From a virus (lineage: Duplodnaviria; Heunggongvirae; Uroviricota; Caudoviricetes): DNA of 15,367 nucleotides. Below the pieces are notes generated by a model, which worked only from the letters and a program-made list of their open reading frames with translations, was not told where the DNA came from and did no database searches. The stretch spans positions 1 to 15,367 of the IMG/VR virus record IMGVR_UViG_2609459844_000007; one strand, 5' to 3'. This document shows, piece by piece, positions 1 to 15,367 of the stretch (positions are counted from its first letter, which is position 1; every line of letters begins with the position of its first letter). Both the position numbers and the translations under genes were made by a program.

Positions 1-84
1 ATGGCGGGTTATTTGTCCTGGTTATTCCCCCGTTGTAAAATCTCTCCTAAACTTAACGGTACGGCACCACACTTCGGGGATGAA

Positions 85-276
85 ATGTTCGCGCTGGTAC
101 TTTTTGTTTGCTACCTGGATGGCGGTTGTGAAGATATTGTTGTGGATGTCTACAACACGGAACAGCAGTGTCTTTATTCTATGAGCGATCAACGGATCCG
201 CCATGGCGGTTGTTTTCCGATTGAGGATTTTATAGATGGTTTCTGGCGACCAGCACAGGAGTATGGTGATTTTTAA
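85..276 (+). CDS. yebW: Small conserved protein, 63 aa (MFALVLFVCYLDGG...), matching my recollection of E. coli YebW; the frame is open from position 1 but ATG at 85 gives the 63-aa product
   Basis: ORF track frame 1..276; internal ATG at 85; convergent with and abutting pphA stop; identity from recalled sequence, not searched. Confidence 0.6.
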   Translation: MFALVLFVCYLDGGCEDIVVDVYNTEQQCLYSMSDQRIRHGGCFPIEDFIDGFWRPAQEYGDF

Positions 277-933
277 TTATTGCAATTGCACAAGAGTCAG
301 TTCGCCCCCAAAGACAGCACCGGTATCAATATAATGCAGGTTGCCAATATCCACGCGATGTCGCAACGGTGTATGACCAAACCAGAAATGATCAGCACCT
401 GTAATTCCCTGCCCTTTTTGGCGTTCACCTAATCGCGAGCGGCTCCACAAGACCTGATGCAAATCAACGTCCTTTTGCCATTCATAAACATCATCTGGAT
501 AATCGGCATGAGCAATAACATGTTTGCCGGTACGACTGTGTACTTCAAGAATAAAGGGCAAATGCTGACATTTTTCCAGCGCCGTTTTCGCTTGTTTCTG
601 TTGATTATCTGCCAGCGCAATAAACCAGTCGCCGCCATTCATCAACCACAAAGACATCTGCTGGGATGCCAGCGCATCCATCGCCATCTGTTCATGATTG
701 CCTCTTACCGCACAAACCCAATGTTGTTCCAGTAACTGCAGACAACGTAAACTTTGCGGCCCACGATCGATAACGTCTCCTACTGAGATAAGTAAATCTC
801 GCCACGGATCAAAACGACAATGCCATAATTTGCGGCGCAACTGCTCAAGACAACCGTGTATATCGCCAGAAAGCCAGATATGTCGCCATTGATGACCCGC
901 AATTCTCTGATAAACGGGCGCAGGCTGTTTCAT
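277..933 (-). CDS. pphA: Serine/threonine protein phosphatase 1 (PrpA), calcineurin-like metallophosphatase, 218 aa
   Basis: Translation contains metallophosphatase motifs GDIHG, GDVIDRG, GNHE; sequence matches recalled E. coli PrpA; track ORF 277..936 begins MMKQ, second Met taken as start. Confidence 0.9.
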   Translation of the reverse strand: MKQPAPVYQRIAGHQWRHIWLSGDIHGCLEQLRRKLWHCRFDPWRDLLISVGDVIDRGPQSLRCLQLLEQHWVCAVRGNHEQMAMDALASQQMSLWLMNGGDWFIALADNQQKQAKTALEKCQHLPFILEVHSRTGKHVIAHADYPDDVYEWQKDVDLHQVLWSRSRLGERQKGQGITGADHFWFGHTPLRHRVDIGNLHYIDTGAVFGGELTLVQLQ

Positions 934-1065
934 CAATATTTTCCTCCCGCGCTAAAGATCACATAATCTTAACAAGAATGTTAAAAAACGCTGGACTCAG
1001 ACAGTAGAGTGTGTGTTATGGTTGACTATAAAGTCAGCGAAGGAAATGCTTCTGGCTTTTAACAG

Positions 1066-1098
1066 ATAAAAAGAGACCGAACACGATTCCTGTTTTCG
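1066..1098. repeat. Left prophage-chromosome junction: imperfect direct repeat of the sdsR 3'-end sequence (ataaaaagagaccgaacacgattcctgttttcgtc), about 29/33 identical to the copy at 14764..14795
   Basis: Direct sequence comparison of the two copies; 8-bp identical block agaccgaa (1073..1080) bounded by mismatches is the likely crossover region. Confidence 0.65.
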
Positions 1099-1397
1099 TC
1101 AACAAACAACAAAATCTTTTAGAATTAATGTGTTAAATAAATTTATGCTCATCTTTTAATCCCTAACACATACCATTACATATTAATACATTCAATTAGT
1201 TACCATTTTTTTCGAGTTTTTTAGAGAAATTTTCGGGAATATTTCAGATCAATCCATGCATACACAAGCAATTCCTGTATTGAATAATTCCGTAGCAATT
1301 ATGTAAAATCACCTCCGGCTGATTTTCATTCAAACTCGCGCTATCGAACGTCCATCAGCCAGCCGTGACACGTTCTTGCATACGACGTGCTACGGTT

Positions 1398-1535
1398 TCA
1401 TTTATCTCCGACCGGAAACTTCTTATACAAAGTCGATACGCCAACATCATAGATGATCGCCACCTTCTGGCGAGAAACTCCTGATGCAATTAGTCGTCCA
1501 GCCTGCGCCCATTGCTCCGGCGTGAGAGTAAGACA
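1398..1535 (-). pseudogene. 3' remnant of a Pin/Gin/Hin-family serine DNA invertase gene (C-terminal HTH only, about 45 codons, no start codon, catalytic domain absent)
   Basis: Minus-strand translation ...LTLTPEQWAQAGRLIASGVSRQKVAIIYDVGVSTLYKKFPVGDK* resembles the recalled C-terminal DNA-binding end of PinE-type invertases; in-frame stop immediately upstream. Confidence 0.7.
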
Positions 1536-1610
1536 TTAAACTGTAGAAAAATCTCATTAAACTTAATATAATAATAAGTTACAGAATTATCTTTACTGAA
1601 TAATAGATAT

Positions 1611-2156
1611 ATGAACATTAGTGAACTTAAAAACTGTATACACTATGAAGTAATAGGTTATAAACGCCCTTTCTCCTGGCGAAAAGCAATTGTTCGCGCA
1701 ATAAAACACAGAAGATTACGTTATTTATTTTGGTGGCGCATAGCAAAATATCTTTTTGATAAAGGCGGATACCGGCGAAAGGTTGCAGGAAAAATAGAAC
1801 GCTTCATTCTTGATAAATACAATGTAACCGTTCCCTTAACTGTAAATATTGGTAAAGGGTTCGACATATCTTATCTCAATGGCGTTGTTATCGGTCACAA
1901 AGTTACAATAGGTGAAAATTGTTCAATTAAGCCTGGAGTAACTATTGGACTTCGCGGTGAATTTAATGATATGGATATTGTCATAGGAAATAATGTAACC
2001 ATCGGCTGTAACGCCACCATCCTTGGTGGCAAAGTGCATATAGGGAATAATGTAAAAATAGGAGCTCATGCATTGGTACTGCATGACATTCCTGATGACT
2101 CCACATTCATTACTAAATTTCACTCTGAAATTATTTATAACTCATCTCACACATAA
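1611..2156 (+). CDS. Hexapeptide-repeat (left-handed beta-helix) acyl/acetyltransferase, 181 aa, CysE/LacA/WbbJ/NeuO-like superfamily
   Basis: Visible [LIV]-G-x4 hexapeptide repeats (VIGHKVTIGENCSIKPGVTIG, IVIGNNVTIGCNATILGGKVHIGNNVKIGAHALV); markedly AT-rich relative to neighbours; convergent with tfa. Confidence 0.8.
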   Translation: MNISELKNCIHYEVIGYKRPFSWRKAIVRAIKHRRLRYLFWWRIAKYLFDKGGYRRKVAGKIERFILDKYNVTVPLTVNIGKGFDISYLNGVVIGHKVTIGENCSIKPGVTIGLRGEFNDMDIVIGNNVTIGCNATILGGKVHIGNNVKIGAHALVLHDIPDDSTFITKFHSEIIYNSSHT

Positions 2157-2166
2157 TTCCGTTTAA

Positions 2167-2739
2167 TCACAGCTCTGGCCATACGATATCCGGGGCTGTA
2201 TTTATATCAATCCGACTCACTAATACCCGGTATTTTTTCCAGGAAGATAGCATCGAGACTTCCTCATCAGTTGCCATTTCAAAATTAACAGCATCCTGCA
2301 GAATTGTTATGTTATCAGTCGCTTCCTGGATTAATCTTGCCTTTTTCTCTTCCGCCTCCCGGATCCGGAACAGTTTTTCTGCTTCTGCATCTTTCACCCA
2401 AGCTGTGCCGTTCCACTTCTGAAACTCCCCATCCGGCGACAACCAGGTGACATTTTTCGGTAATGGGCCAAGTTCAGAAATAAATAACGCGTCGCCGGAA
2501 GCCACGTCATAGACGGTTTTACCCCGATGGTCTTCAATGAGATGCCACGATACCTCATCACTGTTGAAAACAGCCACAAAGCCAGCCGGAATATCTGGCG
2601 GTGCAATATCGGTACTGTTTGCTGGCAGACCTGTATGAGGCGGAATATATGCGTCACCGTCACCAATAAATTCATTAGTTCCGGTCAGCAGATTATAAAT
2701 TTTGATGGTTCGTGATTGTTCACTCATTCTGAATGCCAT
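2167..2739 (-). CDS. Tail fibre assembly protein (Tfa family, P2 gpG-like), 190 aa
   Basis: C-terminal region ([18 protein letters not shown]...[25 protein letters not shown]) matches the recalled conserved Tfa C-terminus; start overlaps tail fibre stop. Confidence 0.85.
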
Positions 2740-3854
2740 TATGCAAGCCTCACAATATAGTTAAATGCGATGTTTTTGACGGTGTTTTCCGCGTTACCAG
2801 CAGCGTTAACGGTGATGGTGTGTCCATGTGAGCCAATTGCAACGGAGTGCGTATGTGCACCAATACCGACAGTATGTGTATGCGCCCCAGCACTTGCTGC
2901 AGTACCTGATACTGAGTGGGTATGCGCGCCAGCAGAATTCGTTGCACCTAAGTGAGTTTGAGCAGAGTTCGACGAAGCTACTCTACCGGAGCTAACGTTA
3001 GCATTATCCCCCTGAGATATCGGATGCGTATGTGCACCTGCTGAAGCTGCTGTTCCGCTAACGCTATGGGTATGCGCACCAGTGTTATTCGTAGATTTAG
3101 TTCCATAATCAAACGATGATGTGTTTTTTGTCCCTAAATCTGTATTTGAAGCACTGGCGCTGTGGGTGTGCGATTTAATGCCGTCCTGTTCCTGGCTAAG
3201 AACATCACGTCCACTTGCAGGCTTACCTTTGATTGTCCAGCCACGCATATCAGGGATCACGCCTGACGGATAAGCGGCTGCAAGTTTCGGGTATGCAGAC
3301 TTGTCAAAAGTCTGTCCCTGCATCAGAGCATAACCAGATGGAACTGTATCTGATGGCCACGGGATCGGGGCACCTACAGGAAAGGTCGAATTATTTTCCA
3401 AACCAAGATATTTAAGGACATCAGCAACAGAGCTTTTTGCCAAAATATCTCGCCCAACCTGTGTCAGGTCAGCCAAATTAGCGGTATCTTGATTGGTAAA
3501 ATACGGTAATTTGTTTTCGGATGCTGAAAGATTAGCAAGTGCGGTAAGTATGGCATTAATTCTCTGATAGTTCTTATCTAATGCAGACGACATTTTTGCG
3601 ATAAAGCCTGCCTGATCGCCATCGTCCTGTACATCCAGTCCACTTTCATTTGCTGTATATTGTGCCATTGCAGATGCAATAAAGCTGGCCTGCCGAATAA
3701 CCTTATTGACTTGCGCACTGGATGCTTTCCCTGCTGTAAATCCGGATAAAAGCGCAGGCAACGCTTCCCATTCCTCCTGCGGCATAACATTGGCATTTTT
3801 ACCCGTTGCAAACGCTTTAAAGTCATTTTTCGCCATCAGAGTAATACTCCCCAT
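2739..3854 (-). CDS. Phage tail fibre protein (P2 gpH-like N-terminal region, collar-type C-terminal domain with GAHTHS repeats), 371 aa
   Basis: Segment [37 protein letters not shown] resembles recalled P2 gpH; repeated [19 protein letters not shown] motifs; position upstream of tfa. Confidence 0.8.
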
Positions 3855-4516
3855 GCTCCTATATCAAAACCACTGATGAATTCGTTATCCATATCAAAAC
3901 CAAAAAATTTTGAGCTTTCCGATGGGGTTTCCACCGAAGGTGTTTCAATGCCACCCGCCCATACCCCGGCGGCTTTTACTGTGAGATACCCCTGTTTAAT
4001 TGCCGCAATTAACTCACGCGATACATCTGAAATATCAGTATCAGGAAAGACCCAGACCGATATCGTCATGTCCTGGTTATCGACTATCTGCATTCGCAGC
4101 CCGGCTCCTGCTGTTACAGCGTCAAGAATTGCCGGAAGCGAATCATTCCGTCCGTCCCAGTTATTAATCGCAATCTTCGCTTTAAGAATGACACGATAGG
4201 TTTCATCGCTGAGGTACATGTATCCGGAATCAGGATCGTATGGTCCCTGCCATACCCCCTGATCATATCCAAGCCCGTCGGTATCCCAGCTGAAATAGAC
4301 ACCTGAGATAGGCTGGCTGACAATACGGCTACGTCCGATCCACAATCCCAGAATGTCAAGTTGCACACCAACCGCAGAGTCAATATCAAATGCAGTAATC
4401 AGCCCTCTGGTGGCAGCCGCAACATCAATAAGCGGCCGGGTCATCAGATCAACATGTGCAAGAAATTTAGGTTTGGTGGCGTGATAGTTTGTGATTAGTT
4501 CGGTGTATTTGCCCAT
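3836..4516 (-). CDS. Putative phage baseplate/tail protein (P2 gpI / e14 YmfQ position), 226 aa
   Basis: Long ORF between baseplate-J fragment and tail fibre in J-I-H-G order; overlapping start/stop coupling with both neighbours; family assignment by position only. Confidence 0.5.
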
Positions 4517-5094
4517 GACTCCACCGTTATAACGATATTTTCCGGGGTACAGGACGCAGATTCGTTATATCTGATATCAATGTTTGATGACGACAAAGCC
4601 CCCGGGGATTTCCCAATCGTCAGTTCCTGAATATCGTAATAGCGTGCATTCCCGCCACTCGCCACGCCAAGATTCGCCGGTGAGTAAATGCGACTTAAAA
4701 GGACTGAATCACCAATCGTCAGACTATTGATATAGTCGGAAATAGCCTGCTGGATCTGCTGCCCTATCTGTGAGGTATAACCCGTAAAAACTTTTAATTT
4801 AATCCGGGCATAAACAGGCACATCACTGGAACGCGAGAATTTGATTACATGGGGATTGCCGTATTTATCCGGAACCGTAACGGATGTTGTACCGTGAGTG
4901 GCTGTCCCCTGGCCTTTATTCCCTCTGATAGCCTGAGCAATATCCGTCACATCACCGCCATCCACAATTACAGCAACAGAGTGTGGCGGTAACCCGTTAC
5001 CGTCCTCCGAACCAGTATCGTTTTCATAGAGTTTGTGGCGGGTTACACCGGTAACATTAGAAACAGCACCATCCAGTGCTTCAAATGGGGTTAA
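4495..5094 (-). pseudogene. Baseplate J-like protein, C-terminal fragment (5' end deleted)
   Basis: ORF has no plausible native start (track begins at a TTG inside the junction); reading frame runs directly out of the truncated dnaC-like gene; position upstream of gpI-like gene. Confidence 0.6.
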
Positions 5095-5497
5095 CCACAA
5101 TCACTGTCTGACCGTCTTTCAGCAGGCGATTCCCGATAGCTGCCGCTAAGTGATTCTTCCCGGTACCAGGTTTTCCGCTGAACGCAAAATTTGTACACCC
5201 GGTCATCAGTTCATCGGCGATGGATTTCGCCTGGCTTAACGCGTGTCGCTGGCCGTCGTTCTGCACCTGGTAATTCGCAAACGAGCATTTACGGTGCAAC
5301 GGCTGGATGCCTGAGCGATTCAGAATTTTTTCCACCCGCAACTGGCGATTCAGGCGGTTGATCTCCTCGCTACGTTTCTGGCCTTCAGCAAGTTGCCACT
5401 CGCGCCACTCCGCTACCGTTCTGAATGGTGCGGTTACATGTGGCGGAGTCAGTCGGCGGATGCGTTCCAGAACGCCGCCTGTCGCAATATTTTTCAT
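5081..5497 (-). pseudogene. DnaC-like phage replication protein (helicase loader, YdaV-like), N-terminal 135 aa only; reading frame leaves DnaC homology after ...GQTVIVV and stops
   Basis: Strong resemblance to recalled E. coli DnaC N-terminal half including Walker A GKPGTGKNHLAAAI; DnaC homology ends at about 5093 then NPI-stop. Confidence 0.8.
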
Positions 5498-5503
5498 GGT
5501 CCG

Positions 5504-6298
5504 TTACCCCCTGAAGCCTGGCGGGATCGCACTGTCCGGCAACGAGACGGTGTTAACCTGTCGGAGCAACGTCTCAGGCCGAACACCTTTCGGCGCGAAC
5601 AGGCCCTGGTATTCATTGGCGATACTGTGTCGAATCACCTGCTCGGGTGTAAAACCCTGCTGGCGGAATTTTTCCAGCTCCCGTATCGCCCCGTTAGCGC
5701 CCTGCTCCGTTCGAATCGGTTTTCGCAATGCCTGCCTGAACCGGACCCACTCATGCCAGAGTGTTTCCGGCAACCAGTCAGGCAGCTCAATAGCCTCCGG
5801 CTCAAATTTTTTAGACGCTCGTTTTTGGCGAGGGGGATTTAGGGGGAGATCAGTATTTATATCTTCCTCTTCCTCTTCCTCTTCCTCTGGTAACGCTTTT
5901 TGATCCATTTGTGTAACGCTGCCAGCGTTACCTTTTCGTTTCAGTTCGCGTATTTTTGTAACTCGCTCGTTTGTAACCGCCCGTTTTTTAGAGCTTTTTC
6001 CGTTATGACGTTCAAAGTTAGGTAGAGAAAGCCCAACGTCATTTTCGACCAGCCATCCAACCTGAATTAACGCATCAGCAAAACCAGCCATAAAAGTGAT
6101 GCGATCTATTGCACTTTTTGTAACGCCGCGAGCGTTACAATCTGCATTACCGTCTATCATTTGTTGATCCGCCCATGCCCAGAAGCGAATAACCTTCCCT
6201 AATGCGGCATCTGGATCAATATTCAGAATCTCAGCAAGCCTGAATATTTCCGGCTTATCCGGCGTAATAACCTCGAGCTTTATCCAGTTTGAAGCCAT
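5504..6298 (-). CDS. Phage replication initiation protein (YdaU-like), 264 aa, with internal poly-Glu tract
   Basis: Position between CII-like gene and dnaC-like gene as in Rac (ydaT-ydaU-ydaV); family assignment by position and recollection. Confidence 0.65.
   Translation of the reverse strand: MASNWIKLEVITPDKPEIFRLAEILNIDPDAALGKVIRFWAWADQQMIDGNADCNARGVTKSAIDRITFMAGFADALIQVGWLVENDVGLSLPNFERHNGKSSKKRAVTNERVTKIRELKRKGNAGSVTQMDQKALPEEEEEEEEDINTDLPLNPPRQKRASKKFEPEAIELPDWLPETLWHEWVRFRQALRKPIRTEQGANGAIRELEKFRQQGFTPEQVIRHSIANEYQGLFAPKGVRPETLLRQVNTVSLPDSAIPPGFRG
5863..5888. repeat. Simple sequence repeat (cttcct)x4, encoding the EEEEEEEE tract of the replication protein on the minus strand
   Basis: Direct reading of sequence. 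Confidence 0.9.
5913..5931. promoter_or_regulatory. 19-bp palindrome gtaacgc-tgcca-gcgttac (copy 1 of 3), candidate protein-binding site/iteron
   Basis: Perfect 7-bp inverted arms with 5-bp spacer; same arms recur at 6120 and 6312. Confidence 0.45.
6120..6138. promoter_or_regulatory. 19-bp palindrome gtaacgc-cgcga-gcgttac (copy 2 of 3)
   Basis: Direct reading; 207 bp from copy 1. Confidence 0.45.
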
Positions 6299-6311
6299 TT
6301 GTTTTCACCTT

Positions 6312-6330
6312 GTAACGCTCGCAGCGTTAC
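6312..6330. promoter_or_regulatory. 19-bp palindrome gtaacgc-tcgca-gcgttac (copy 3 of 3), just upstream of the replication gene start
   Basis: Direct reading; 192 bp from copy 2. Confidence 0.45.
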
Positions 6331-6375
6331 ATTTAACTGATACCGAACAAAACAATCCGGCACGATTAATTTCAA

Positions 6376-6798
6376 TCAATGCACTACGACAGAATCGCCG
6401 GGCGACCCACCACCGCTGAAATGTGCTTTCCGGTAAACGGCCTGGACTGCATCATCATGCGCATCAATTGCCGTACTCAACGCTTCCTGCGCCGCCAGTA
6501 ATGCACGGCGTTCCAGGGTATCGAAGATGCAGAGTCGGTGACGCAGCTCGCGCGGAAGAATTGCCAGAACCGCAGGGATCAGTTTCTGAATTTTTTCCCT
6601 TTGCGCTTTCGTTTCACCTTTCAACCAACGGTGATAGATATTCTGCTGATTGTTCCAGTCCTTGCCTGGTACAAGGGGCAATTCGCCGCCCCCCTGGCGC
6701 AGATATTCTTCAGTAATTGCGTTAGCGACCCACGCCTGCCCTTTTTCGGCTGCCAGGGCTAACAACACTGATTCGATGTGCTCATGCCTGATTTTCAT
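6376..6798 (-). CDS. ydaT: YdaT-like (CII-like) prophage regulatory protein, 140 aa
   Basis: Sequence resembles recalled Rac YdaT; overlaps upstream Cro-like gene by 4 nt; position downstream of cro. Confidence 0.7.
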   Translation of the reverse strand: MKIRHEHIESVLLALAAEKGQAWVANAITEEYLRQGGGELPLVPGKDWNNQQNIYHRWLKGETKAQREKIQKLIPAVLAILPRELRHRLCIFDTLERRALLAAQEALSTAIDAHDDAVQAVYRKAHFSGGGSPGDSVVVH

Positions 6799-7037
6799 GA
6801 ATCAACCGCTCCTATGCTGTTTTCGCTATGCTTACCGTCTGGGGGGAATACATCGTCAAGTCCACAATGAGCGCCAAGCCGATTAAGGGTAGAAACAATT
6901 TTTCTGCACTCCTCTAGTCCAGGGGTACGAAAATTTGCTTCGTAATTTGCCAGTCGGCTTTGTATCCACCCTAACTGAACAGCAAGTTGTCTTTGAGACA
7001 GCCCAAGCTGTTTTCGATATGTTGAAATTTTGTTCAT
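6795..7037 (-). CDS. Cro-like HTH DNA-binding protein (YdaS-like), 80 aa
   Basis: HTH LGLSQRQLAVQLGWIQSRLANYEA; divergent from repressor gene; GGAGG Shine-Dalgarno 6 nt upstream of ATG. Confidence 0.75.
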   Translation of the reverse strand: MNKISTYRKQLGLSQRQLAVQLGWIQSRLANYEANFRTPGLEECRKIVSTLNRLGAHCGLDDVFPPDGKHSENSIGAVDS

Positions 7038-7061
7038 TGAAAACCTCCGATGACAATTTTA

Positions 7062-7122
7062 AACACACCTTGTGTTATATGGTCAAGCTGTTTTGTGTTT
7101 TATGTAAATCACGATTCGTGAT
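7062..7122. promoter_or_regulatory. Right operator region: inverted repeats aacac-N5-gtgtt (7062..7076), degenerate copy (7085..7099), atcac-N5-gtgat (7108..7122) at 23-bp spacing, between divergent cro-like and repressor genes
   Basis: Direct reading; candidate -35 TTGACC on minus strand (complement of 7081..7086) for the cro-like gene. Confidence 0.6.
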
Positions 7123-7133
7123 ACAAGGATGCA

Positions 7134-7553
7134 ATGGAAAAAGAAAACGAAAAAATTGCCGCCAGTAGGCTCAATGACAAAATTGCAATGCGTCTTAAAG
7201 AGCGCAGGCAGAAGCTTGGTTTATCTCAAGGAAAACTTGCTGAAATCTGCGGATGGACGCAATCGCGTATAGGTAACTATGAGGCGGGCAGCAGAAATGT
7301 TGGAGTGCATGACGCTGTCGTATTGGGAAAGGCACTTGGCATATCTCCTCCTGAGCTCCTCTTTGGAGAACAGGAATCTTCTGAATTGTGGTTAAATGAA
7401 TCCCAACGAAAACTTCTTGAGTTGTTTAACCAGCTACCGGGCTCAGAACAACAACGAATGATTGAGCTATTTGAAGTCCGGCTAAAAGAAATCGATGAGT
7501 ATGTAGAAAAATATTTGAGAGGCAGGCTTAAAGATAATCCCCCACCGGAGTAA
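7134..7553 (+). CDS. CI-like prophage repressor, XRE-family HTH, 139 aa, no LexA/S24-like peptidase domain
   Basis: HTH LGLSQGKLAEICGWTQSRIGNYEA nearly identical in the recognition region to the Cro-like protein; divergent arrangement across operators. Confidence 0.8.
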   Translation: MEKENEKIAASRLNDKIAMRLKERRQKLGLSQGKLAEICGWTQSRIGNYEAGSRNVGVHDAVVLGKALGISPPELLFGEQESSELWLNESQRKLLELFNQLPGSEQQRMIELFEVRLKEIDEYVEKYLRGRLKDNPPPE

Positions 7554-7583
7554 TGATCTTGCTATCACAGTAATATGCCAATC

Positions 7584-7608
7584 AGCCCGCTATCAGCGGG
7601 CTTTTTTG
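7584..7608 (+). terminator. Rho-independent terminator after repressor gene (agcccgct-atc-agcgggct + TTTTTTG)
   Basis: Perfect 8-bp stem, 3-nt loop, U-tract. Confidence 0.75.
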
Positions 7609-7637
7609 TACCATCATCATATGACACTCACCGAAAA

Positions 7638-7679
7638 AACACATTTCGTGTTGACATAAGAAAACGCATTGTGTTTAAT
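7638..7679 (+). promoter_or_regulatory. PL-like promoter (TTGACA 7651..7656, 17-bp spacer, TTTAAT 7674..7679) with overlapping operator aacac-N5-gtgtt (7638..7652) and a second degenerate operator (7661..7675)
   Basis: Direct reading; same operator motif and 23-bp phasing as in the right operator region. Confidence 0.6.
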
Positions 7680-7853
7680 AAGCATATCCAAACAACGCCC
7701 CATCAGAGAACGGCAGGACAATACCTCGAGTTATCCAGTCACTGAACAGGGCTAAGTAGCCAGCCTGAGGCATACGAACATGACGGCAGTTGTTGATTGA
7801 TACAAAGCGCAGTAGATAAAACGTTCCGCCACCCGGCGTTAAGGGGAAAAAAG

Positions 7854-8072
7854 ATGGTTGGTGAAGATCTGGTTGTTATTAACGGTCAATTGTGCAGCAA
7901 AGATGTGGCAGCCATGCTTATTAGCAAGGTTCTTCCAACTGTGCTGGAGGTCATTGCAGAAAAAGTAAAGGCTGGTCGTCCAGACAAGGAAGTTGAAGAG
8001 GCGGCAAAAACAGTTGTTCATGCCGCTACAGAAGCAATTATTTTGAAGAGCCTAGTTTCGCCCAAGCCTTAA
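7854..8072 (+). CDS. Hypothetical small protein, 72 aa (MVGEDLVVINGQ...), first ORF downstream of PL-like promoter
   Basis: Strong SD AAGGGG 7 nt upstream of ATG at 7854; T7 tract 8085..8091 downstream; no recognisable family. Confidence 0.5.
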   Translation: MVGEDLVVINGQLCSKDVAAMLISKVLPTVLEVIAEKVKAGRPDKEVEEAAKTVVHAATEAIILKSLVSPKP

Positions 8073-8232
8073 GTGAATCGGCGCTTTTTTTAGCATCACG
8101 TTCATTGAGTAGTGACAAAAACTCATTCTCAGCATTCTCGATTTCCGAGAAAAATTCTTGATGAGTTGTTTCTCGCTGCGATCTGATGCTGAAAACTAAA
8201 GCAAGTAGCCAGGCTTTGTCTTTATTATCCAT
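8038..8232 (-). CDS. Hypothetical small protein, 64 aa (MDNKDKAWLLALVFSIRSQRE...), convergent with and overlapping the 3' end of the 72-aa ORF
   Basis: SD AAGG 7 nt upstream of ATG; candidate sigma70 promoter on minus strand (-10 TATACT = complement of 8267..8272, -35 TTTACC); no family recognised. Confidence 0.35.
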   Translation of the reverse strand: MDNKDKAWLLALVFSIRSQRETTHQEFFSEIENAENEFLSLLNERDAKKSADSLKAWAKLGSSK

Positions 8233-8418
8233 AGGAATACCTTATTACTGGTTGTGTGAGAACTCCAGTATACCACCGAGCCTGAAGTGGTAAAAAGACA
8301 GGCGCACAACACGAAGGCGCATTTCCGGTATTCATAAAGAGTCGGACTTGTCTGTTAAATTTAAATGGTGGGAGTGCGCCTCCGGTTGTAAATAACGACA
8401 TTGCTATGTGTAGTCTTT

Positions 8419-8462
8419 GGCGGCATCAGTTCTACTCCGTGGCTGCCCTGCCGCCCCTTTTT
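8419..8462 (+). terminator. Terminator-like GC stem (ggcggca ... tgccgcc) followed by TTTTT, inside noncoding region upstream of kilR
   Basis: Direct reading; large loop, so strength uncertain. Confidence 0.35.
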
Positions 8463-8627
8463 AAAGTGAATTTTGTGATGCGGTGAATGCGGCTAAGCGC
8501 ACGCGGCACAGTTAAAAGCATCAGTGTTATGGGTGGATTATCCGGCGTTAATTGTTAACTGGTTAACGTCACCTGGAGGCACCAGGCACCGCATCGACAA
8601 AATTCATTTGTAAAAATGGTGATAATT

Positions 8628-8849
8628 ATGATTGCTCATCACTTCGGAACTGATGAAATACCACGTCAGTGTGTGACCCCTGGCGATTATGTTCTTCATG
8701 AAGGTCGGACATATATCGCCTCGGCAAACAATATTAAAAAGCGAAAACTTTATATTCGAAGCCTGACAACAAAAACATGCATTTCTGACTGCATGATTAA
8801 AGTCTTCCTCGGTCGTGATGGTTTACCTGTAAAGGCGGAGTCATGGTAA
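8628..8849 (+). CDS. kilR: KilR-like cell-division inhibitor (Rac kil), 73 aa
   Basis: Sequence [35 protein letters not shown]... matches recalled Rac KilR; gene order kilR-ydaE-racC-recE; track ORF starts 12 nt upstream at 8616 without an SD. Confidence 0.8.
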
Positions 8850-9019
8850 TGACTAAGAAAATAAAATGTGCTTATCACCTTTGCAATAAAGAAATTGAAG
8901 AAAGCAAAATCATTACAAGACCACTTCATTTCATGCGTGAAGTTATACCAACGACGGAAATGAAAAAATATTGTAGTGAAATCTGTGCCGAAAAAGACCA
9001 GATGGCACACGAACTTTAA
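8849..9019 (+). CDS. ydaE: YdaE-like small Cys-rich metal-binding protein, 56 aa (not in ORF track because under 60 aa)
   Basis: Manual translation [56 protein letters not shown]; start overlaps kilR stop (TAATG); position as in Rac. Confidence 0.7.
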   Translation: MTKKIKCAYHLCNKEIEESKIITRPLHFMREVIPTTEMKKYCSEICAEKDQMAHEL

Positions 9020-9093
9020 TTAACTGACTATCCGAAACTGAATTTATGCCAGCAATGGCAGGGATTCGCTCAACCTTAATTAAGGAGAAAAAC

Positions 9094-9369
9094 ATGATTA
9101 CCAGTTATGAAGCCACTGTTGTTACTACTGATGACATTGTTCACGAAGTCAGCCTGGAAGGAAAGCGTATTGGCTACGTGATTAAAACAGAAAATAAAGA
9201 AACCCCTTTCACTGTGGTTGATATCGACGGTCCATCAGGCAACGTTAAAACGCTTAACGAAGGCGTCAAAAAAATGTGCCTGGTGCATATCGGAAAGAAT
9301 CTGCCCGCAGAAAAAAAAGCCGAATTTCTGGCAACTCTGATTGCAATGAAATTAAAAGGTGAAATCTGA
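9094..9369 (+). CDS. racC: RacC-like protein, 91 aa
   Basis: AAGGAG SD 6 nt upstream of ATG at 9094; sequence matches recalled Rac RacC; track ORF starts further upstream at 9046. Confidence 0.8.
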   Translation: MITSYEATVVTTDDIVHEVSLEGKRIGYVIKTENKETPFTVVDIDGPSGNVKTLNEGVKKMCLVHIGKNLPAEKKAEFLATLIAMKLKGEI

Positions 9370-9374
9370 AAGAA

Positions 9375-9399
9375 ATAGCCTGCGTATGGCGCAGGCTAT
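9375..9399 (+). other. Perfect 10-bp inverted repeat hairpin (atagcctgcg-tatgg-cgcaggctat) without U-tract, between racC and recE
   Basis: Direct reading. Confidence 0.6.
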
Positions 9400-9469
9400 G
9401 AACAGTGTGTATCCGGCAAGATTATTCACTGAACAAACGAATTTTAATCTGAGTTGAGGTTAAAAAACA

Positions 9470-12400
9470 ATGAGCACCGATAAACAAGTTTACCCACTGT
9501 ATTACGAAGCAAAAAATGACAAAGTAAGAAAACGTCTCGGTATTAAAGGCGGTTTTTACTGGGCTGAAGCGAAAAAATTATCCATTGCCATCTCCCGTGG
9601 TGCTGTTGCGATTGACGATGCTGGCTACGATGAAGATGACTTCAAAAAACCTGTTCGCGTCAATTTGCCCGTTGTTGATGACCTCCCGCCAGAAGGCGTA
9701 TTTGATACGGAATTCTGCAACCGTTACGAAAAAGGCGGGGAAGATGGCATCACAATGGTATTTATCGCGCCCTCACCCTCTGCGCAGGGCAAACCAGCCG
9801 GCACTGACAACACCAATGTTAATGGCGAAGACATGACGGAGATTGAGGAGAATATGCTACTCCCGATTTCTGGCCAGGAGCTGCCCATTCGCTGGCTTGC
9901 TCAACACGGCAGCGAAAAACCGGTAACGCACGTTTCACGCGACGAACTCCAGGCATTACACATTGCACGGGCTGAGGAACTACCAGCTGTTACTGCCCTA
10001 GCTGTTTCCCACAAAACCAGCCTGCTCGATCCGCTGGAAATTCGCGATCTCCACAAACTGGTGCGTGATACTGACAGAGTTTTCCCTAATCCAGGCAATT
10101 CAAGCCTGGGACTGATGACTGCTTTTTTCGAAGCATACATGAACGCAGACTACACCGATCGCGGTCTGCTGACAAAAGAGTGGATGAAAGGAAATCGTGT
10201 TTCACGCATCACGCGCACGGCTTCCGGCGCTAATGCTGGCGGCGGGAACCTCACCGATCGCGGCGAAGGTTTCGTTCACGATCTGACGTCACTGGCGCGC
10301 GACGTAGCCACTGGCGTACTGGCTCGTTCAATGGACGTGGACATTTATAACCTTCATCCGGCACACGCTAAACGTGTCGAGGAAATTATCGCTGAAAATA
10401 AACCGCCCTTTTCTGTTTTCCGCGACAAATTCATCACCATGCCTGGCGGGCTGGATTATTCCCGCGCCATCGTGGTTGCCTCCGTAAAAGAAGCACCAAT
10501 TGGGATCGAGGTTATCCCCGCACACGTCACTGAATATCTGAACAAAGTACTGACTGAAACTGATCATGCCAACCCTGATCCGGAAATCGTGGATATTGCC
10601 TGCGGTCGCTCCTCTGCCCCGATGCCGCAGCGTGTAACAGAAGAAGAAAAACAGGATGATGAAGAAAAACCGCAACCATCTTGCGCAATGGCAGATGAAC
10701 AGGCAACGGCTGAAACAGTGGAACCGGATGCAACTGAACATCATCAGGACACGCAGCCGCTGGATGCTCAGTCACAGGTAAATTCTGTTGATGCGAAATA
10801 TCAGAAACTGCGGGCAGAACTCCATGAAGCCCGGAAAAACATTCCGCCCAAAAATCCTGTCGATGCAGACAAATTACTGGCTGCCTCTCGCGGAGAATTT
10901 GTTGAAGGGATTAGCGACCCGAATGATCCGAAATGGGTTAAGGGGATCCAGACCCGCGATTCTGTGTACCAGAATCAGCCAGAAACGGAACAGAACGACC
11001 AGAAAGCGGAACAGAACAGCCCAAATACGCAACAAAACGAGCCAGAAACGAAACAGCCTGAGCCAGTAGTGCAACAACTGGAAACGGAGAAAGTTTGCAC
11101 CGCCTGCGGTCAGGCTGGCGGCGGCAACTGTCCTGACTGCGGCGCGGTGATGGGCGACGCAACGTATCAGAAAACCTTTAATGAAGAAAATCAGAATGAA
11201 TATCAGGAAAAAGGTCTGGAGGAAATGGAAGGTGCTGAACATCCGCACAAGGAGAACGCTGGCAGCAATCCGCATTGCGATTGCAGTGATGAAGCTGGTG
11301 AAGCGACAGCACCTGTAGTAACTGAAATCATGTGGCCGTCATATTTCGAGCCTGGCCGCTATGAAAACCTCCCGAACGAGGTTTATCACTCCGCCAACGG
11401 AATAAGCAGCACAATGCTGAAGGATGCCCGCATCAGCCTGATGTATTACCACGGACGGCACATTGCCGGAACTATTCCGGGCGAGGAAAGTGATGCATTG
11501 CTGCGTGGGCGAATTATTCACAGCTATGTTCTGGAAACGGATAAATTCGCTGATGAGTATGCCATTCCGGTACCGGTTCCTGAATATGTGGTTACTACTT
11601 CTAACGAACTGATCGCCATCATTAAAAAACACAATGCCAGTCTGCCAGCACCGATGACACCAGAGCAGATGAAAGAGTGGATCGAAAGCTACAACAGCAC
11701 TCTTATACAGCCACTGTCGGTAAGTGCCGGGGCCGAAGAAACAGGCATCCTTTACGGTTCGCTTCCGGAGGAATTCCGGCGTATTCCTGAGGGGGAAAAA
11801 CACACAGCATCAGCAATGAAAGCCTGTATTAAAGAATACAACGCAAACCTCCCTCCTCTGTTGAAAACCAGTGGATCACGGGAGCAACTTCTGGAGCAAA
11901 TTGAAACTGTAGATCCAGAACTGGCAAAAAAAGAACGTGCTAAATCTTTGCCTTACAACATCAGTGGCACAAAAGAGCAATTAACCGAAATCGCACGGAA
12001 AATTCGCCCGGAACTGGTGACACTGGAAGACTGGCAAAAACGCCAGCAAGAAGAAAACGCCGGGAAAACGTTTATCAGTCCGGATATGTATGAACAGGCA
12101 AAAAATATTCACGCTGCACTGCAAAACAATACCGATGCAGCAAGGCTACTCAACCACCCGGATCGCAAATCTGAAATCAGCTATTTCGGGTTTGATGAAG
12201 AAACCGGGCTGGAAATCAGGGTCCGTCCTGATATCGAAATCCGGCTGCCATACGAAAGCATTTGCGCCGACGTGAAGTCAGTCAGCCTCGGTTATGTGCG
12301 ACAGGAACGACTGAAAGATCGCCTGCACCGTGAAATTATTGAGCGTGATTATCACCTCAGCGCAGCAATGTATTGCGATGTGGCAAACCTGGACAAATTT

Positions 12401-12766
12401 TTCTGGATCTTCGTCAACAAAGATGCTGGCTATCACTGGGTGGCCGTCGTGGAAGCCTCGCAGGAACTCCTGGAACTTGGTCGACAGGAATATCGCCGGA
12501 CGCTACGACAGATAAATGAAGCTCTGGAGACAAACAACTGGCCAGCACCGATTACCGAAAGTTATACCGACGAATTAAACGACTTTGATCTTCGTCGTCT
12601 TGAGAAGATGATAAATAACCTGCCTTCATCAGGTGATCCAGAAGCAGAACAAAAATTTATTGCTCTGGAAAATACGCTGAATGCTGCACGACCACATCTG
12701 GGAGAATTATATGAGGCGTATAAAACGACACTGACAGATATGAAACCAGAATATATCGGCTCCTGA
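9470..12766 (+). CDS. recE: RecE-family exonuclease VIII homologue, 1098 aa, with divergent C-terminal PD-(D/E)XK nuclease domain carrying a ~150-aa insertion and a C-terminal extension
   Basis: N-terminal/central ~600 aa closely resemble recalled K-12 RecE (e.g. [43 protein letters not shown]); Cys4 cluster [16 protein letters not shown]; PD...DVK motif at 12227..12276. Confidence 0.85.
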
Positions 12767-12774
12767 TATTTACT

Positions 12775-12798
12775 ATGGCGGTGTAGCCTCACCGCCAT
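12775..12798 (+). other. Perfect 9-bp inverted repeat hairpin (atggcggtg-tagcct-caccgccat) between recE and ralR
   Basis: Direct reading. Confidence 0.6.
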
Positions 12799-12829
12799 AA
12801 CAAAACTTTATTTTATGAGAGAAAAGACA

Positions 12830-13024
12830 ATGCGGTATGAAAAAGTCAAACCATGTCCGTTTTGTGGTTGTCCATCAGTAACGGTGAAAGCCATTTCAGG
12901 ATATTACCGCGCAAAGTGTAACGGATGCGAATCCCGAACTGGCTATAGTGGAAGTGAAAAAGAAGCACTCGAAAGATGGAATAAACGAACTACTGGAAAT
13001 AATAATGGAGGTGTTCATGTATAA
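12830..13024 (+). CDS. ralR: RalR/Lar-like restriction alleviation protein, 64 aa
   Basis: MRYEKVKPCPFCGCPSVTVKAISGYYRAKCNGCESRTGY... matches recalled Rac RalR (Lar); Cys4 motif; track ORF begins at upstream ATG 12815. Confidence 0.8.
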   Translation: MRYEKVKPCPFCGCPSVTVKAISGYYRAKCNGCESRTGYSGSEKEALERWNKRTTGNNNGGVHV

Positions 13025-13205
13025 AATTACTGCCACTATTGAAAAGGAAGGTGGCACTCCTACTAACTGGACAAGGTACTCAAAAACAAAATTAACCAAA
13101 TCAGAATGCGAAAAAATGCTCTCAGGTAAAAAAGAAGCAGGCGTTTCCAGAGAGCAGAAAGTAAAGCTGATAAATTTTAATTGCGAGAAGCTTCTGTCCT
13201 CGTGA
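13017..13205 (+). CDS. ydaC: YdaC-like small protein, 62 aa
   Basis: GGAGG SD 5 nt upstream of ATG 13017; overlaps ralR stop; resembles recalled Rac YdaC; track ORF starts at 12948 inside ralR. Confidence 0.65.
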   Translation: MYKITATIEKEGGTPTNWTRYSKTKLTKSECEKMLSGKKEAGVSREQKVKLINFNCEKLLSS

Positions 13206-13260
13206 GTTGCATTATATACAAATTAGAACTTCATAGCTGATTATTAAAAATCAACCACCC

Positions 13261-13289
13261 CCGCCAGTATTCTGTATATTTACTGGCGG
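13261..13289 (+). other. 9-bp inverted repeat hairpin (ccgccagta ... tactggcgg, 11-nt loop) between ydaC and xis
   Basis: Direct reading. Confidence 0.55.
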
Positions 13290-13305
13290 TCATATCGTAA
13301 GAGGT

Positions 13306-13592
13306 ATGGCAATGAATCTTGTGACACTAAAAACGTGGGGAAACTCAGATATCCAGATAACCCACCATCAATATCAACGCTGAGACGATGGGCAAGGAAT
13401 GGAAACATTTATCCTGCACCTGAACTACACGGGAGGAGTTACAGGGTGGTTCCGGAGGCTTTCTATATCAACCCAAATAAGGTTGATACCGATATAACAC
13501 ACCATCAGCCTAATGGGCGACAAGGGAGAGACAGTCCGTTACTGGAGAAGTTAAAACATGCAGCGGAAAAAATACGATCCCAATTTGCCTAA
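13306..13592 (+). pseudogene. Excisionase (lambda Xis-like winged helix) with apparent -1 frameshift in a G4 run (13337..13340); downstream frame opens with GTG at 13335
   Basis: Frame 1 from ATG 13306 encodes MAMNLVTLKTWG then stops; frame 3 continues KLRYPDNPPSISTLRRWARNGNIYP...; together they align with the recalled lambda Xis N-terminus (LTLQEWNARQRRPRSLETVRRWVRE). Confidence 0.55.
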
Positions 13593-14634
13593 AAACTTAA
13601 CATATCGAAGGAGGGACAAAGCATATTACTGGCGCAACCCTATGACGAAAGAAGAATTTACACTAGGTAAAATTTCAAGAAGAGATGCAGTAGCGCAGGC
13701 AATTGAAGCAAATCATTATATATACAAAAACTACTCTCCTGCTGCCTTAATTGAAAAGCTTAAAGGGTTCGACTCATTTACTATGGCAGACTGGATTGAA
13801 CGTTACAAAACGATTCTTATAAGGAGAAAAGTGTCCAGAAATACTTATAAAATTCGGGTAAATCAACTGGAGACAATAAAAGAAAAATTGGGAGGGATTT
13901 TACTGACAGAAATAACCACTCGCCATATTGCCGAGTTTCTTGATTTGTGGATTGAAGGAGGGAAAAACACGATGGCAGGATCAATGCGTTCTGTGTTATC
14001 TGATATGTTCCGCGAGGCCATTGTTGAAGGACGTATATCTCAAAATCCAGTAACGCCAACAAGAGCACCGAAAATAGTAGTTACAAGAGAACGGCTGAAA
14101 CTAAAGACATACAACTGCATCAGGGAGGCAGCAGATCAACTTCCGACATGGTTCCCATTAGCTATGGACTTAGCCCTTGTAACAGGACAACGTCGCGAAG
14201 ACATAACGAATATGCGGTTCAGTGAGATTTATGATGATCGTCTCCACATCAGGCAAATTAAGACAGGAATGATGATTGCTATCCCCCTGTCACTCAGCCT
14301 TCCTGTCGCTGGTTTACGACTTGGTGCAGTAGTTGAACAGTGCCGCATGGTAAGTAGGGGGGATTATCTAATCAGTGCCGGGATTAGAAAAAACAGCCCT
14401 GACGGTAGCATTCACCCGGACGGCCTGACAAAGAAATTTGTCGCAGCCAGAAAATTAACAGGTATCCAGTTCAGTGAAAACCCACCAACTTTTCACGAGA
14501 TCAGAAGCCTGGCTGGACGATTGTACAAAGAAACATGTGGAGAAGAATTTGCTCAGCGTCTACTTGGCCACACATCGGAGAAGACAACAAAAATGTATCT
14601 TGATGAGAGAGAAAAAACGTACTTACTGCTCTGA
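13558..14634 (+). CDS. int: Tyrosine integrase, lambda Int family, 358 aa
   Basis: N-terminus aligns with recalled lambda Int (PPNLYIRNNGYYCYRDPRTGKEFGLG versus [27 protein letters not shown]); catalytic-region motifs [21 protein letters not shown]-terminal Tyr in TTKMYLDE. Confidence 0.9.
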
Positions 14635-14710
14635 TTTTAACGTAAATGGATTGTTAAATGTATTTTGGTTGTGATATAACCAAAAAGACCGGAATACAGA
14701 AATTCGAGTA

Positions 14711-14730
14711 AATTTCGGGGAATTTCGGGG
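14711..14730. repeat. Tandem direct repeat aatttcgggg x2 in the int-proximal att arm; candidate arm-type integrase binding sites
   Basis: Direct reading; related motif aaattttcgggaat at 1227..1240 in the opposite arm. Confidence 0.4.
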
Positions 14731-14763
14731 AGACGTTTGCAACTAATTGATTTTAAATACAAT

Positions 14764-14795
14764 TAAAAAAAGACCGAATACGATTCCTGTATTCG
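14764..14795. repeat. Right prophage-chromosome junction: att-core copy that is also the terminator hairpin of sdsR
   Basis: Imperfect direct repeat of 1066..1098; perfect hairpin gaccgaatac-gattcct-gtattcggtc. Confidence 0.65.
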
Positions 14796-14868
14796 GTCCA
14801 GGGAAATGGCTCTTGGGAGAGAGCCGTGCGCTAAAAGTTGGCATTAATGCAGGCTTAGTTGCCTTGCC
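14764..14868 (-). ncRNA. sdsR: SdsR (RyeB) RpoS-dependent small RNA, about 105 nt
   Basis: Minus-strand sequence GGCAAGGCAACUAAGCCUGCAUUAAUGCC...GGACCGAAUACAGGAAUCGUAUUCGGUC(U)n matches recalled SdsR; sigmaS-type -10 CTATTCT (complement of 14874..14880) upstream; terminator hairpin plus U-tract. Confidence 0.85.
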
Positions 14869-14955
14869 CTTTAAGAATAGATGACGACGCCAGGTTTTCC
14901 AGTTTGCGTGCAAAATGGTCAATAAAAAGCGTGGTGGTCATCAGCTGAAATGTTA

Positions 14956-14996
14956 AAAACCGCCCGTTCTGGTGAAAGAACTGAGGCGGTTTTTTT
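14956..14996. terminator. Bidirectional rho-independent terminator (accgcccgttct ... agaactgaggcggt flanked by A5 and T7) serving ryeA (+) and yebY (-)
   Basis: Direct reading of stem and flanking U-tracts on both strands. Confidence 0.65.
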
Positions 14997-15025
14997 ATTG
15001 GAAATCAAAAGGCTATTTTAGGTAA

Positions 15026-15367
15026 TTAACAGAGTTTTTCAGCTCGTTCTATAAACGGTGCCAGACTCATTTTTTCGCCGGGATTGTTAGGATCATCAAT
15101 CTGAATCACCGAAATGGGTTGGGCTTTAGTCTTCCCACTGGCAACTTCCTTTTGTGCGATATCGTTTAAAGGATACTGCACGAGGGTACTTGGGTTAATG
15201 ACATACAAAGCATTACCCGGTCTGCAAGTCAGCATCACCTCTTCGCGATTAAACGCCCATTTGTCTTTACCCACTTCAAAACGACTGACGGTAATCACCT
15301 GCGGTGCAGCCAGCGCCGCTGCAGAACTGGTGAGTAACAGAAACGTCAGAATACTTTTTTTCATCAT
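15026..15367 (-). CDS. yebY: YebY, DUF2511-family secreted protein with signal peptide, 113 aa
   Basis: [23 protein letters not shown] signal peptide; matches recalled E. coli YebY; start codon is the last triplet of the window. Confidence 0.85.

Follow-up and report, generated by a model that had tools for sequence, protein, structure and literature searches.

Probable single integration of a temperate phage into the sdsR terminator hairpin of Escherichia coli followed by decay of the prophage in place

The window considered here, a stretch of 15,367 nucleotides representing positions 1 to 15,367 of the IMG/VR virus record IMGVR_UViG_2609459844_000007, holds 13.7 kb of phage DNA between chromosomal flanks of Escherichia coli, and it is very probable that this insert originated from a single temperate phage, which integrated once into the terminator hairpin of the small RNA (sRNA) gene sdsR and then decayed in place. 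An earlier note, made from the letters of the window alone, had proposed another history, in which two short partial copies of the att core inside the element were taken as scars of more than one integration or excision event. Both strings do exist at 1271-1281 and 14682-14699, where that note had located them, but the copy at 14682-14699 also belongs to the attP of a free phage and the 11-mer at 1271-1281 is found at chance level, so that their interpretation as scars is not sustained. The element is an E. coli instance of an already described kind of insertion, in a decayed state, and it matters mainly for the correct annotation of the locus, exemplifying textbook insertion into the terminator of an sRNA gene and, after it, prophage decay of a typical kind.

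The borders of the element are marked by two imperfect direct repeats. Repeat search of the window returned the pair 1062-1098 and 14759-14795 (37 nt, 86% identity, spacing 13697), and a 31-nt pattern with no more than 3 mismatches allowed was matched only at 1068-1098 and 14765-14795, with 0 matches expected from 200 shuffles. The empty site of E. coli K-12 MG1655, alignment to which had been suggested in the earlier note as a check, points to the same junctions (positions in the K-12 MG1655 stretch are given below with the label L001, those in the RM8082 stretch with L003, and L004 stands for PP818812.1). Window 1-1098, running from yebW through pphA to the start of ryeA/sdsR, corresponds to L001 2538-3635 at 99.4% identity, and window 14764-15367, running from sdsR/ryeA to yebY, corresponds to L001 3604-4207 at 98.5% identity; the flanks abut in K-12, and the two alignments share 32 bp (L001 3604-3635) representing the sdsR terminator hairpin, which is duplicated at both junctions. 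The repeats thus bracket the prophage as had been claimed, at the coordinates previously given for them apart from the right-hand start, which was off by one (1066 pairs with 14763), and the identification of the right copy with the terminator hairpin of sdsR agrees with Rfam, which assigns minus-strand positions 14864-14765 to SdsR_RyeB (118 bits), the sdsR gene being intact there.

Sequence differences between the two copies make it possible to narrow the point of recombination. The attB of K-12 reads AAAAAGAGACCGAACACGATTCCTGTATTCGGTC. The left repeat copy has the K-12 bases at G1073 and C1082 and T1094 where K-12 has A, the right copy differs from K-12 at A14770 and T14779 (G and C in K-12) and is identical to it from 14780 on, and the non-K-12 bases of both copies are those of attP in the free-phage record PP818812.1 (pPE4). 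Because the three informative polymorphisms (left/right G1073/A14770, C1082/T14779 and T1094/A14791) bracket ACGATTCCTGT, the crossover is best placed within this 11-bp interval (1083-1093 on the left and 14780-14790 on the right). The interval is found 16-26 nt from the 3′ end of sdsR (14765), in agreement with the last ~23 bp used by phages integrating into ryeB/sdsR, and is internal to ryeA.

ACGATTCCTGT includes the 7-nt loop GATTCCT of the sdsR hairpin, and the 10-bp arms of the stem are inverted repeats. The core of a tyrosine recombinase site is usually composed of two inverted half-sites disposed around a 6-8-bp overlap. Projected onto the hairpin, this layout suggests that the two stem arms would act as inverted core-type integrase half-sites with the loop GATTCCT between them being the strand-exchange (overlap) region. 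In these terms, three parts would make up attL (1066-1101, plus strand): GACCGAACAC at 1075-1084 as the native half-site, GATTCCT at 1085-1091 as the overlap, and GTTTTCGTCA at 1092-1101 as the C′ half-site contributed by the phage. Agreement of attL with K-12 extends to 1093, the sequence being of phage type from T1094 on, and the pPE4 attP has an identical C′ half-site. attR, which is at the same time the sdsR terminator (14763-14798, plus strand), would have on its phage side the A-tract and, at 14772-14781, the C half-site GACCGAATAC, then GATTCCT at 14782-14788 and, as the native B′ half-site, GTATTCGGTC at 14789-14798. The predicted energy of the hairpin is weakened in attL (-7.3 kcal/mol versus -15.8 kcal/mol for the native one) and unchanged in attR at -15.8 kcal/mol because a G·U pair turns into A-U there. 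The 3′ tail of sdsR changes from CUCUUUUU to CUUUUUUU in attR, its descending stem strand and U-tract being phage-donated. With the phage attP bearing an imperfect 32-bp copy of the hairpin, integration would rebuild an intact sdsR at attR and leave a degenerate copy at attL. As to the distribution of the alleles, a 151-nt probe centered on the K-12 attB was used for the analysis of site occupancy in 5426 complete E. coli genomes, and the K-12-type allele (GAGACCGAACAC, L001 3605-3621) is the majority one, being present in 5118 of the 5426 at no less than 99% identity to the probe; the phage-type allele (window 14765-14781) agrees with the SdsR consensus of Rfam, its stem being perfect and its U-tract longer.

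The right arm of the insert was joined to its left arm, and the resulting attP reconstruction (958 nt) was searched against the phage collection. In PP818812.1, labelled Actinobacillus phage vB_Apl-pPE4, the 3′ end of int, the P arm, the core and the P′ arm are contiguous, matching query positions 1-788 of the 958 nt at 92.5% identity; the attP segment proper is 91% identical over 431 nt and its core is exactly as predicted. Several IMG/VR contigs are likewise in the attP form. In E. coli RM8082 (NZ_CP043825.1, 2022-2064 kb), a full-length 42-kb prophage lies between pphA and yebY with the same arrangement of both ends. Since right and left arms form one contiguous attP in PP818812.1 and RM8082 has the same ends, both ends of the insert are assigned by sequence to one phage and the insert is read as a single element. 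Its left end (pphA, attL, P′ arm and pin) is found in 51 complete E. coli genomes at a coverage of at least 80%. The P′ arm (1092-1246, plus strand) contains an IHF-like sequence ATTCAATTAGTTA at 1191-1203 and arm-type candidates TTTTTCGAG at ~1208-1216 and ATTTTCGGG at 1229-1237; it is kept in the pPE4 attP, and partly in the Salmonella-type attP, up to ~1246, and beyond this point the lineages are wholly diverged. As a side remark, PP818812.1 shares 92-94% identity with prophage DNA of E. coli, and the sdsR terminator of E. coli and Salmonella is matched by its attP, for which reason the stated Actinobacillus host looks doubtful. The event so outlined would be lambda-type site-specific recombination, inserting one temperate phage a single time into the sdsR terminator hairpin, and the intact phage would have had a size of ~42-47 kb, with a Rac-like early region and myovirus-type late genes.

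The partial copy of the core at 14682-14699, AAAAAGACCGGAATACAG, belongs to the P arm of attP (14655-14771, plus strand). It adjoins three direct repeats, namely the arm-type candidates AAATTCGAG (14700-14708) and AATTTCGGGG, present twice at 14711-14730, which recur in the P′ arm as TTTTTCGAG and ATTTTCGGG, so that candidate arm-type repeats TTTCGRG are found in both arms. They are followed by CAACTAATTGATT at 14740-14752, the sole match to the IHF consensus that the motif scan revealed in the window. Judged by these motifs, P arm, P′ arm and arm-binding Int together look like a complete lambda-style attP. The gapped match of AAAAAGACC-GAATAC to AAAAAGACCGGAATAC has a local score of 25 and P = 0.13, which is not significant within the window alone, and the case for the P-arm copy is for this reason built on comparative data. 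The copy has the same position in the pPE4 attP and in RM8082. In Salmonella phage ZC-S1_prp, found by BLAST, the 45-nt block GTGATATAACCAAAAAGACCGGAATACAGAAATTCGAG is identical, though the queried stretch from the 3′ end of int to attP is 77% identical overall. Exact-motif scan found the copy in 89 IMG/VR contigs, always ~82 nt to the left of the core and both in attR and in attP contexts, the motif itself having been the query, which makes this set circular. Among loci chosen by integrase homology alone and having a readable P arm, 57 of 64 carry the copy; this set, mostly of close relatives (Int 95-100% identical), and ZC-S1_prp constitute the unbiased evidence. In relatives with 74% Int identity, AAAAAGACCGAATACG (16/16 match to the core) or its one-base variant is present, being a better copy of the left half of the core. 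Because it is kept ~82 nt from the core in attP and attR forms alike, the sequence at 14682-14699 is regarded as phage-borne, belonging to an attP conserved in phages of E. coli and Salmonella, and is no chromosomal scar; the attP of this integrase family includes a conserved extra copy of a core half-site.

The 11-mer ATTCCTGTATT (1271-1281, plus strand), located between the P′ arm and the pin remnant described below, is of another nature. Its length of 11 nt is that of the longest exact interior match to the core. The earlier note had considered a chance match of this length improbable, and one pre-specified 11-mer would indeed be expected 0.01 times; however, when any stretch of the 42-nt core region is admitted instead of one pre-chosen 11-mer, and both strands of the 13.6-kb interior are considered, the fraction of simulated interiors with an exact match of at least 11 nt is 26% under an order-1 and 34% under an order-3 Markov model. 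The 11-mer is found in the full-length RM8082 prophage and is restricted to the lineage of the window and RM8082, being missing from pPE4, which has ATCTATGAGTT there, and from the Salmonella-type arms, where the sequence is unrelated. It is a coincidence in lineage-specific DNA. Its consideration as a site of the P′ arm was rejected on the grounds that the conserved part of this arm ends at ~1246 and the 11-mer is lineage-specific.

The interior of the element was compared with RM8082 by BLAST, which yielded three collinear blocks: window 1-5093 against L003 313-5405, 5092-12603 against L003 32772-40265, and 12602-15367 against L003 41223-43990. By this alignment the element of the window is an RM8082-type prophage with two deletions, and its small size is explained by these internal losses and not by a composite insertion. 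The larger deletion (27,366 bp, L003 5406-32771 of RM8082 being absent) joins baseplate J to ydaV at 5092/5093 with 2-nt microhomology at the junction and takes out every head, tail, lysis and late-regulation gene. The smaller one (957 bp, junction 12602/12603) produced an in-frame fusion of recE with the tail of recT (9470-12766, plus strand; Pfam Exonuc_VIII and DUF3799), translated from a 1098-aa open reading frame as RecE without its last 5 aa followed by the last 53 aa of RecT, so that recT is lost. The exact RecE-RecT′ fusion protein is on record in one draft contig only (GCA_000703525.1, JNPF01000035.1), with the gene order of the window. The xis gene (13312-13592, plus strand) is assigned to the lambda Exc family, with a Pfam Exc match of 2e-12 in the downstream frame. 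Compared with RM8082 and Z1323CEC0002, a short A-run at ~13341 is one A shorter in it, and translation confirms that the frame starting from its ATG ends after 23 codons; a gene is not called in this stretch on contig JNPF01000035.1, and with the frameshift the copy lacks a functional excisionase gene. A GTG at 13335 could restart translation of xis in the original frame. At the left end, the C-terminal remnant of a pin/Gin-type DNA invertase (1398-1526, minus strand), annotated in RM8082 as a helix-turn-helix (HTH) protein without N-terminus, stands in the position of pinE, which is intact in other strains; since RM8082 shows the same arrangement, truncation of pin predates the large deletion. 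In this place (window 1398-2156), an acetyltransferase gene on the plus strand occupies the part corresponding to the N-terminal portion of pinE in other strains. Decay after integration would comprise the 27.4-kb and 957-bp deletions, the frameshift in xis and the truncated pin, and the remnant is a defective prophage, probably locked in place. Among complete RefSeq genomes of E. coli, none reaches a coverage of 80% for the window or has its configuration, and the sequence of the 27-kb deletion junction had no match in the IMG/VR scan.

The attB probe was unsplit in 5191 of the 5426 genomes and split in 235 (4.3%), and int together with the P arm of the window is found, at no less than 95% identity, in 228 genomes; almost all occupancy of this site in E. 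coli is due to the integrase family of the window. Seven genomes score two int places, and in the one of them that was examined, Z1323CEC0002, a single prophage with int interrupted by IS3 was found and no tandem array, the megablast probe being blind to a bare middle att copy. Scan of genome contigs for the P-arm motif gave only E. coli ECMA0423 and Shigella flexneri SFBU1023, whose similarity to the window is confined to the int-attR end. Serial or tandem insertion at the sdsR att site, with the partial copies as remains of junctions from earlier integration or excision, is very unlikely. The presence of both strings speaks in favor of such a history, and so does the Salmonella ryeA/ryeB locus, which PMC3333887 and PMC7380047 describe as having acquired foreign DNA repeatedly; the locus, called a hotspot for acquired DNA in the earlier note, is a published phage att site (PMC7380047, PMC3333887). 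Nevertheless, a free phage has the copy at 14682-14699 within its attP, and E. coli and Salmonella relatives have it too; the 11-mer does not exceed chance expectation and is present in the single full-length prophage of RM8082; one phage attP unites both ends of the insert without interruption, and the interior of the insert is collinear with one prophage save for two simple deletions. There is one int only, interior matches to the core are at most 11 nt long, so that a third full att copy is missing, and the doubled int of Z1323CEC0002 is one gene split by IS3. The assumption that the 13.7-kb element is a naturally small satellite or island using the same integrase and att site is extremely unlikely: its size is in the satellite range, and it retains int together with an immunity region, toxin-antitoxin modules and a replication gene accompanied by iteron-like repeats, but both deletion junctions cut genes (baseplate J/ydaV and recE/recT), xis is frameshifted, the exact fusion protein occurs in a single contig with the junction sequence absent from IMG/VR, and no complete E. 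coli genome covers at least 80% of the window.

For the P-arm copy itself, its conservation as seen in the alignments favors a function. It is conceivable, though we hold it as a tentative and rather doubtful proposal, that the block is a functional extra site (core-type Int-binding or directionality control) and that the insertion in addition rewires the circuit composed of the SdsR toxin, the RyeA antitoxin and pphA. Comparably doubtful is the view of the copy as a neutral relic of an old duplication or att capture in the ancestor of the phage family, for example in a tandem-prophage hybrid. Such an origin would be compatible with the resemblance of the copy only to the left half of the core and the A-tract, with the extra G that breaks the match in most E. 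coli-type phages, and with the variants tolerated in sequenced prophages (L118 without the extra G, L111 with a point change and L117 with an 85-bp loss). It is at odds with complete identity of the 45-nt block between the E. coli phage and ZC-S1_prp against 77% overall in the queried stretch, with its occurrence as a 16-mer free of mismatches where relatives have 74% Int identity, and with the fixed spacing between the copy and the core. Several circumstances weigh against the reading of the insert as one phage integrated once and against the roles proposed for its sites. The crossover interval depends on three polymorphic positions only and assumes a K-12-like attB before the insertion, the assignment of hairpin loop and arms has a sequence-only basis, the motif-selected contigs are circular as evidence and the integrase-selected ones are for the most part close kin, the P-arm copy could be a neutral relic, and ancient serial events may have happened in the history of the phage lineage.

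Variation around the P-arm copy was also observed. In L117 (IMGVR_UViG_2728369554_000022), a deletion just downstream of int has removed the 85 bp separating the copy from the core, including the arm repeats and the IHF-like site; because both endpoints of this deletion fall into the common AAAAAGACCG...AATAC, copy and core are able to recombine or slip. The number of AATTTCGRGG arm repeats (10-bp unit) varies between one and two copies in L032, L059, L066 and L078 as compared with window 14711-14730. A role of the copy at the RNA level, either as half of a backup terminator or by pairing with the sdsR stem, was dropped, the copy being without a partner arm or covariation in diverged relatives.

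The position of the insert implies certain consequences for the sRNA pair and the adjacent gene. In K-12, RyeA is a 272-nt RNA antisense to all of SdsR, while transcription of pphA results from read-through that starts at the sdsR promoter and is interfered with by ryeA transcription (PMC6610125). The annotated start of ryeA in K-12 (L001 3567, corresponding to window 1030) precedes the core by 37 nt, and integration would cut the gene ~65 nt from its start. In the window, the 5′ end of ryeA (1030-1098, plus strand, ~65 nt) remains at attL with its promoter still attached and reads into the prophage, separated by the insertion from the rest of the gene; the body of ryeA (14761-14905, plus strand; Rfam SraC_RyeA, 179 bits, and K-12 annotation), devoid of its own promoter, follows the int gene of the prophage in the same orientation. 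sdsR and pphA, between which integration would put the prophage, are now separated by 13.7 kb. From this arrangement one would expect, in line with the Salmonella case described below, loss of normal RyeA, a higher level of SdsR and loss of sigma-S-dependent expression of pphA. The rewiring would consist in ryeA being deprived of its promoter, with its body placed behind the prophage int operon, and in pphA being uncoupled from sdsR read-through. Carriers of the element may therefore differ in the levels of SdsR, RyeA and PphA, since the sdsR 3′ end is phage-donated with a longer U-tract, ryeA is off its promoter and pphA is off the sdsR promoter.

Several known systems resemble the element. 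Integration into the 3′ end of Salmonella ryeB/sdsR was described in 2008 (Balbontin et al., J Bacteriol 190:4075), as referred to in PMC7380047, PMC3333887 and PMC3603311. For Salmonella phage W104, PMC7380047 reports that integration takes place in ryeB (sdsR), within its final 23 bp and inside ryeA, with ryeA lowered and ryeB raised upon lysogeny. The target of W104 and of the Salmonella ryeA/ryeB hot spot, i.e., the last ~23-32 bp of ryeB/sdsR internal to ryeA, is the same as here, the 5′ part of ryeA is replaced there too, and Salmonella-type relatives of the window's integrase were recovered with the same core and P-arm blocks; the element of the window differs from W104 in having E. coli as a host, a Rac-like early region and a defective copy of the phage. 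Full-length prophages at pphA/yebY in E. coli RM8082 and FDAARGOS_1289 and the phage PP818812.1 share with it the integrase (95-100%), attL/attR or attP, the early region and the tail-fiber end at 91-98% DNA identity; as compared with RM8082-type prophages, the window is without 27.4 kb of late genes and recT and has xis frameshifted. Rac of K-12 possesses the same recE, recT, ralR/RalA, kilR, ydaE, ydaT, ydaV and repressor pair, and tail fiber, tfa and pin at the far end, and both elements are defective. The set recE/recT, ralR/RalA, kilR, ydaT and ydaV characteristic of a Rac-like early region is present in the window, though recT is deleted. Rac uses a different integrase and is located in ttcA, whereas the element studied here is not in ttcA but between pphA and yebY in the sdsR terminator. 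With the lambda attP it has in common a heterobivalent Int with arm-binding domain and an Exc-type Xis and, as sequence candidates only, a 7-bp spacer flanked by inverted core half-sites, short repeats in direct orientation on either arm and, beside the core, a match to the IHF consensus, while the core of the window is the Rho-independent terminator hairpin of an sRNA gene. To our knowledge, the P-arm copy of the left core half-site has no counterpart in lambda.

The remaining features of the window are as follows. The left chromosomal flank comprises a yebW fragment (1-276) and pphA (277-936, minus strand, K-12 annotation transferred via alignment), and the right one ends with yebY (15026-15367, minus strand, K-12 annotation and alignment). 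Adjacent to attR, the lambda-type tyrosine integrase of 358 aa (13558-14634, plus strand) is apparently intact, combines arm-binding, core-binding and catalytic domains (Pfam PF09003 Arm-DNA-bind_1, PF22022 Phage_int_M and PF00589 Phage_integrase) and is 100% identical to Int of two IMG/VR prophages. A moron-like cargo gene encodes a hexapeptide-repeat acetyltransferase (1611-2156, plus strand; Pfam Hexapep 1e-13), annotated in RM8082 as serine acetyltransferase. The late-region remnant (2167-5092, minus strand), collinear with RM8082 L003 313-5405 at 98.5% identity, consists of genes for tail-fiber assembly (2167-2739, Pfam Caudo_TAP), tail fiber (2739-3854, Pfam Collar/Phage_fiber) and a DUF2612 protein (3836-4516, Pfam DUF2612) and of the C-terminal stub of baseplate J, extending to 5092, all on the minus strand. 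The Rac-like replication, immunity and early region (5093-9369, assigned from RM8082 annotation via alignment and from Pfam calls on contig JNPF01000035.1) includes the ydaV stub (to 5497), the replication gene (5504-6298), ydaT (6376-6798), genes for cro-like (6795-7037) and repressor-like (7134-7553) HTH proteins, a DicF-like sRNA (8405-8456, Rfam 60.9 bits, above the gathering score), kilR (8616-8849) and ydaE (8843-9019). Between the recE fusion and xis, the ralR toxin gene (12815-13024, plus strand) is adjoined by the RalA antitoxin sRNA (13201-13023, minus strand; Rfam 212 bits, above the gathering score), and a DUF1187 gene is located within 12815-13205, ralR and the latter being assigned from the annotation of RM8082 and of contig JNPF01000035.1. 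In addition, a palindrome of ~20 bp (TGTAACGCTGCCAGCGTTAC-like) occurs in 3 copies ~200 bp apart (5908-5931, 6115-6138 and 6307-6330), in and just upstream of the ydaU/O-like replication gene; by their appearance, these palindromes would be iterons of an origin, or else sites resembling operators, in the Rac-type replication module.

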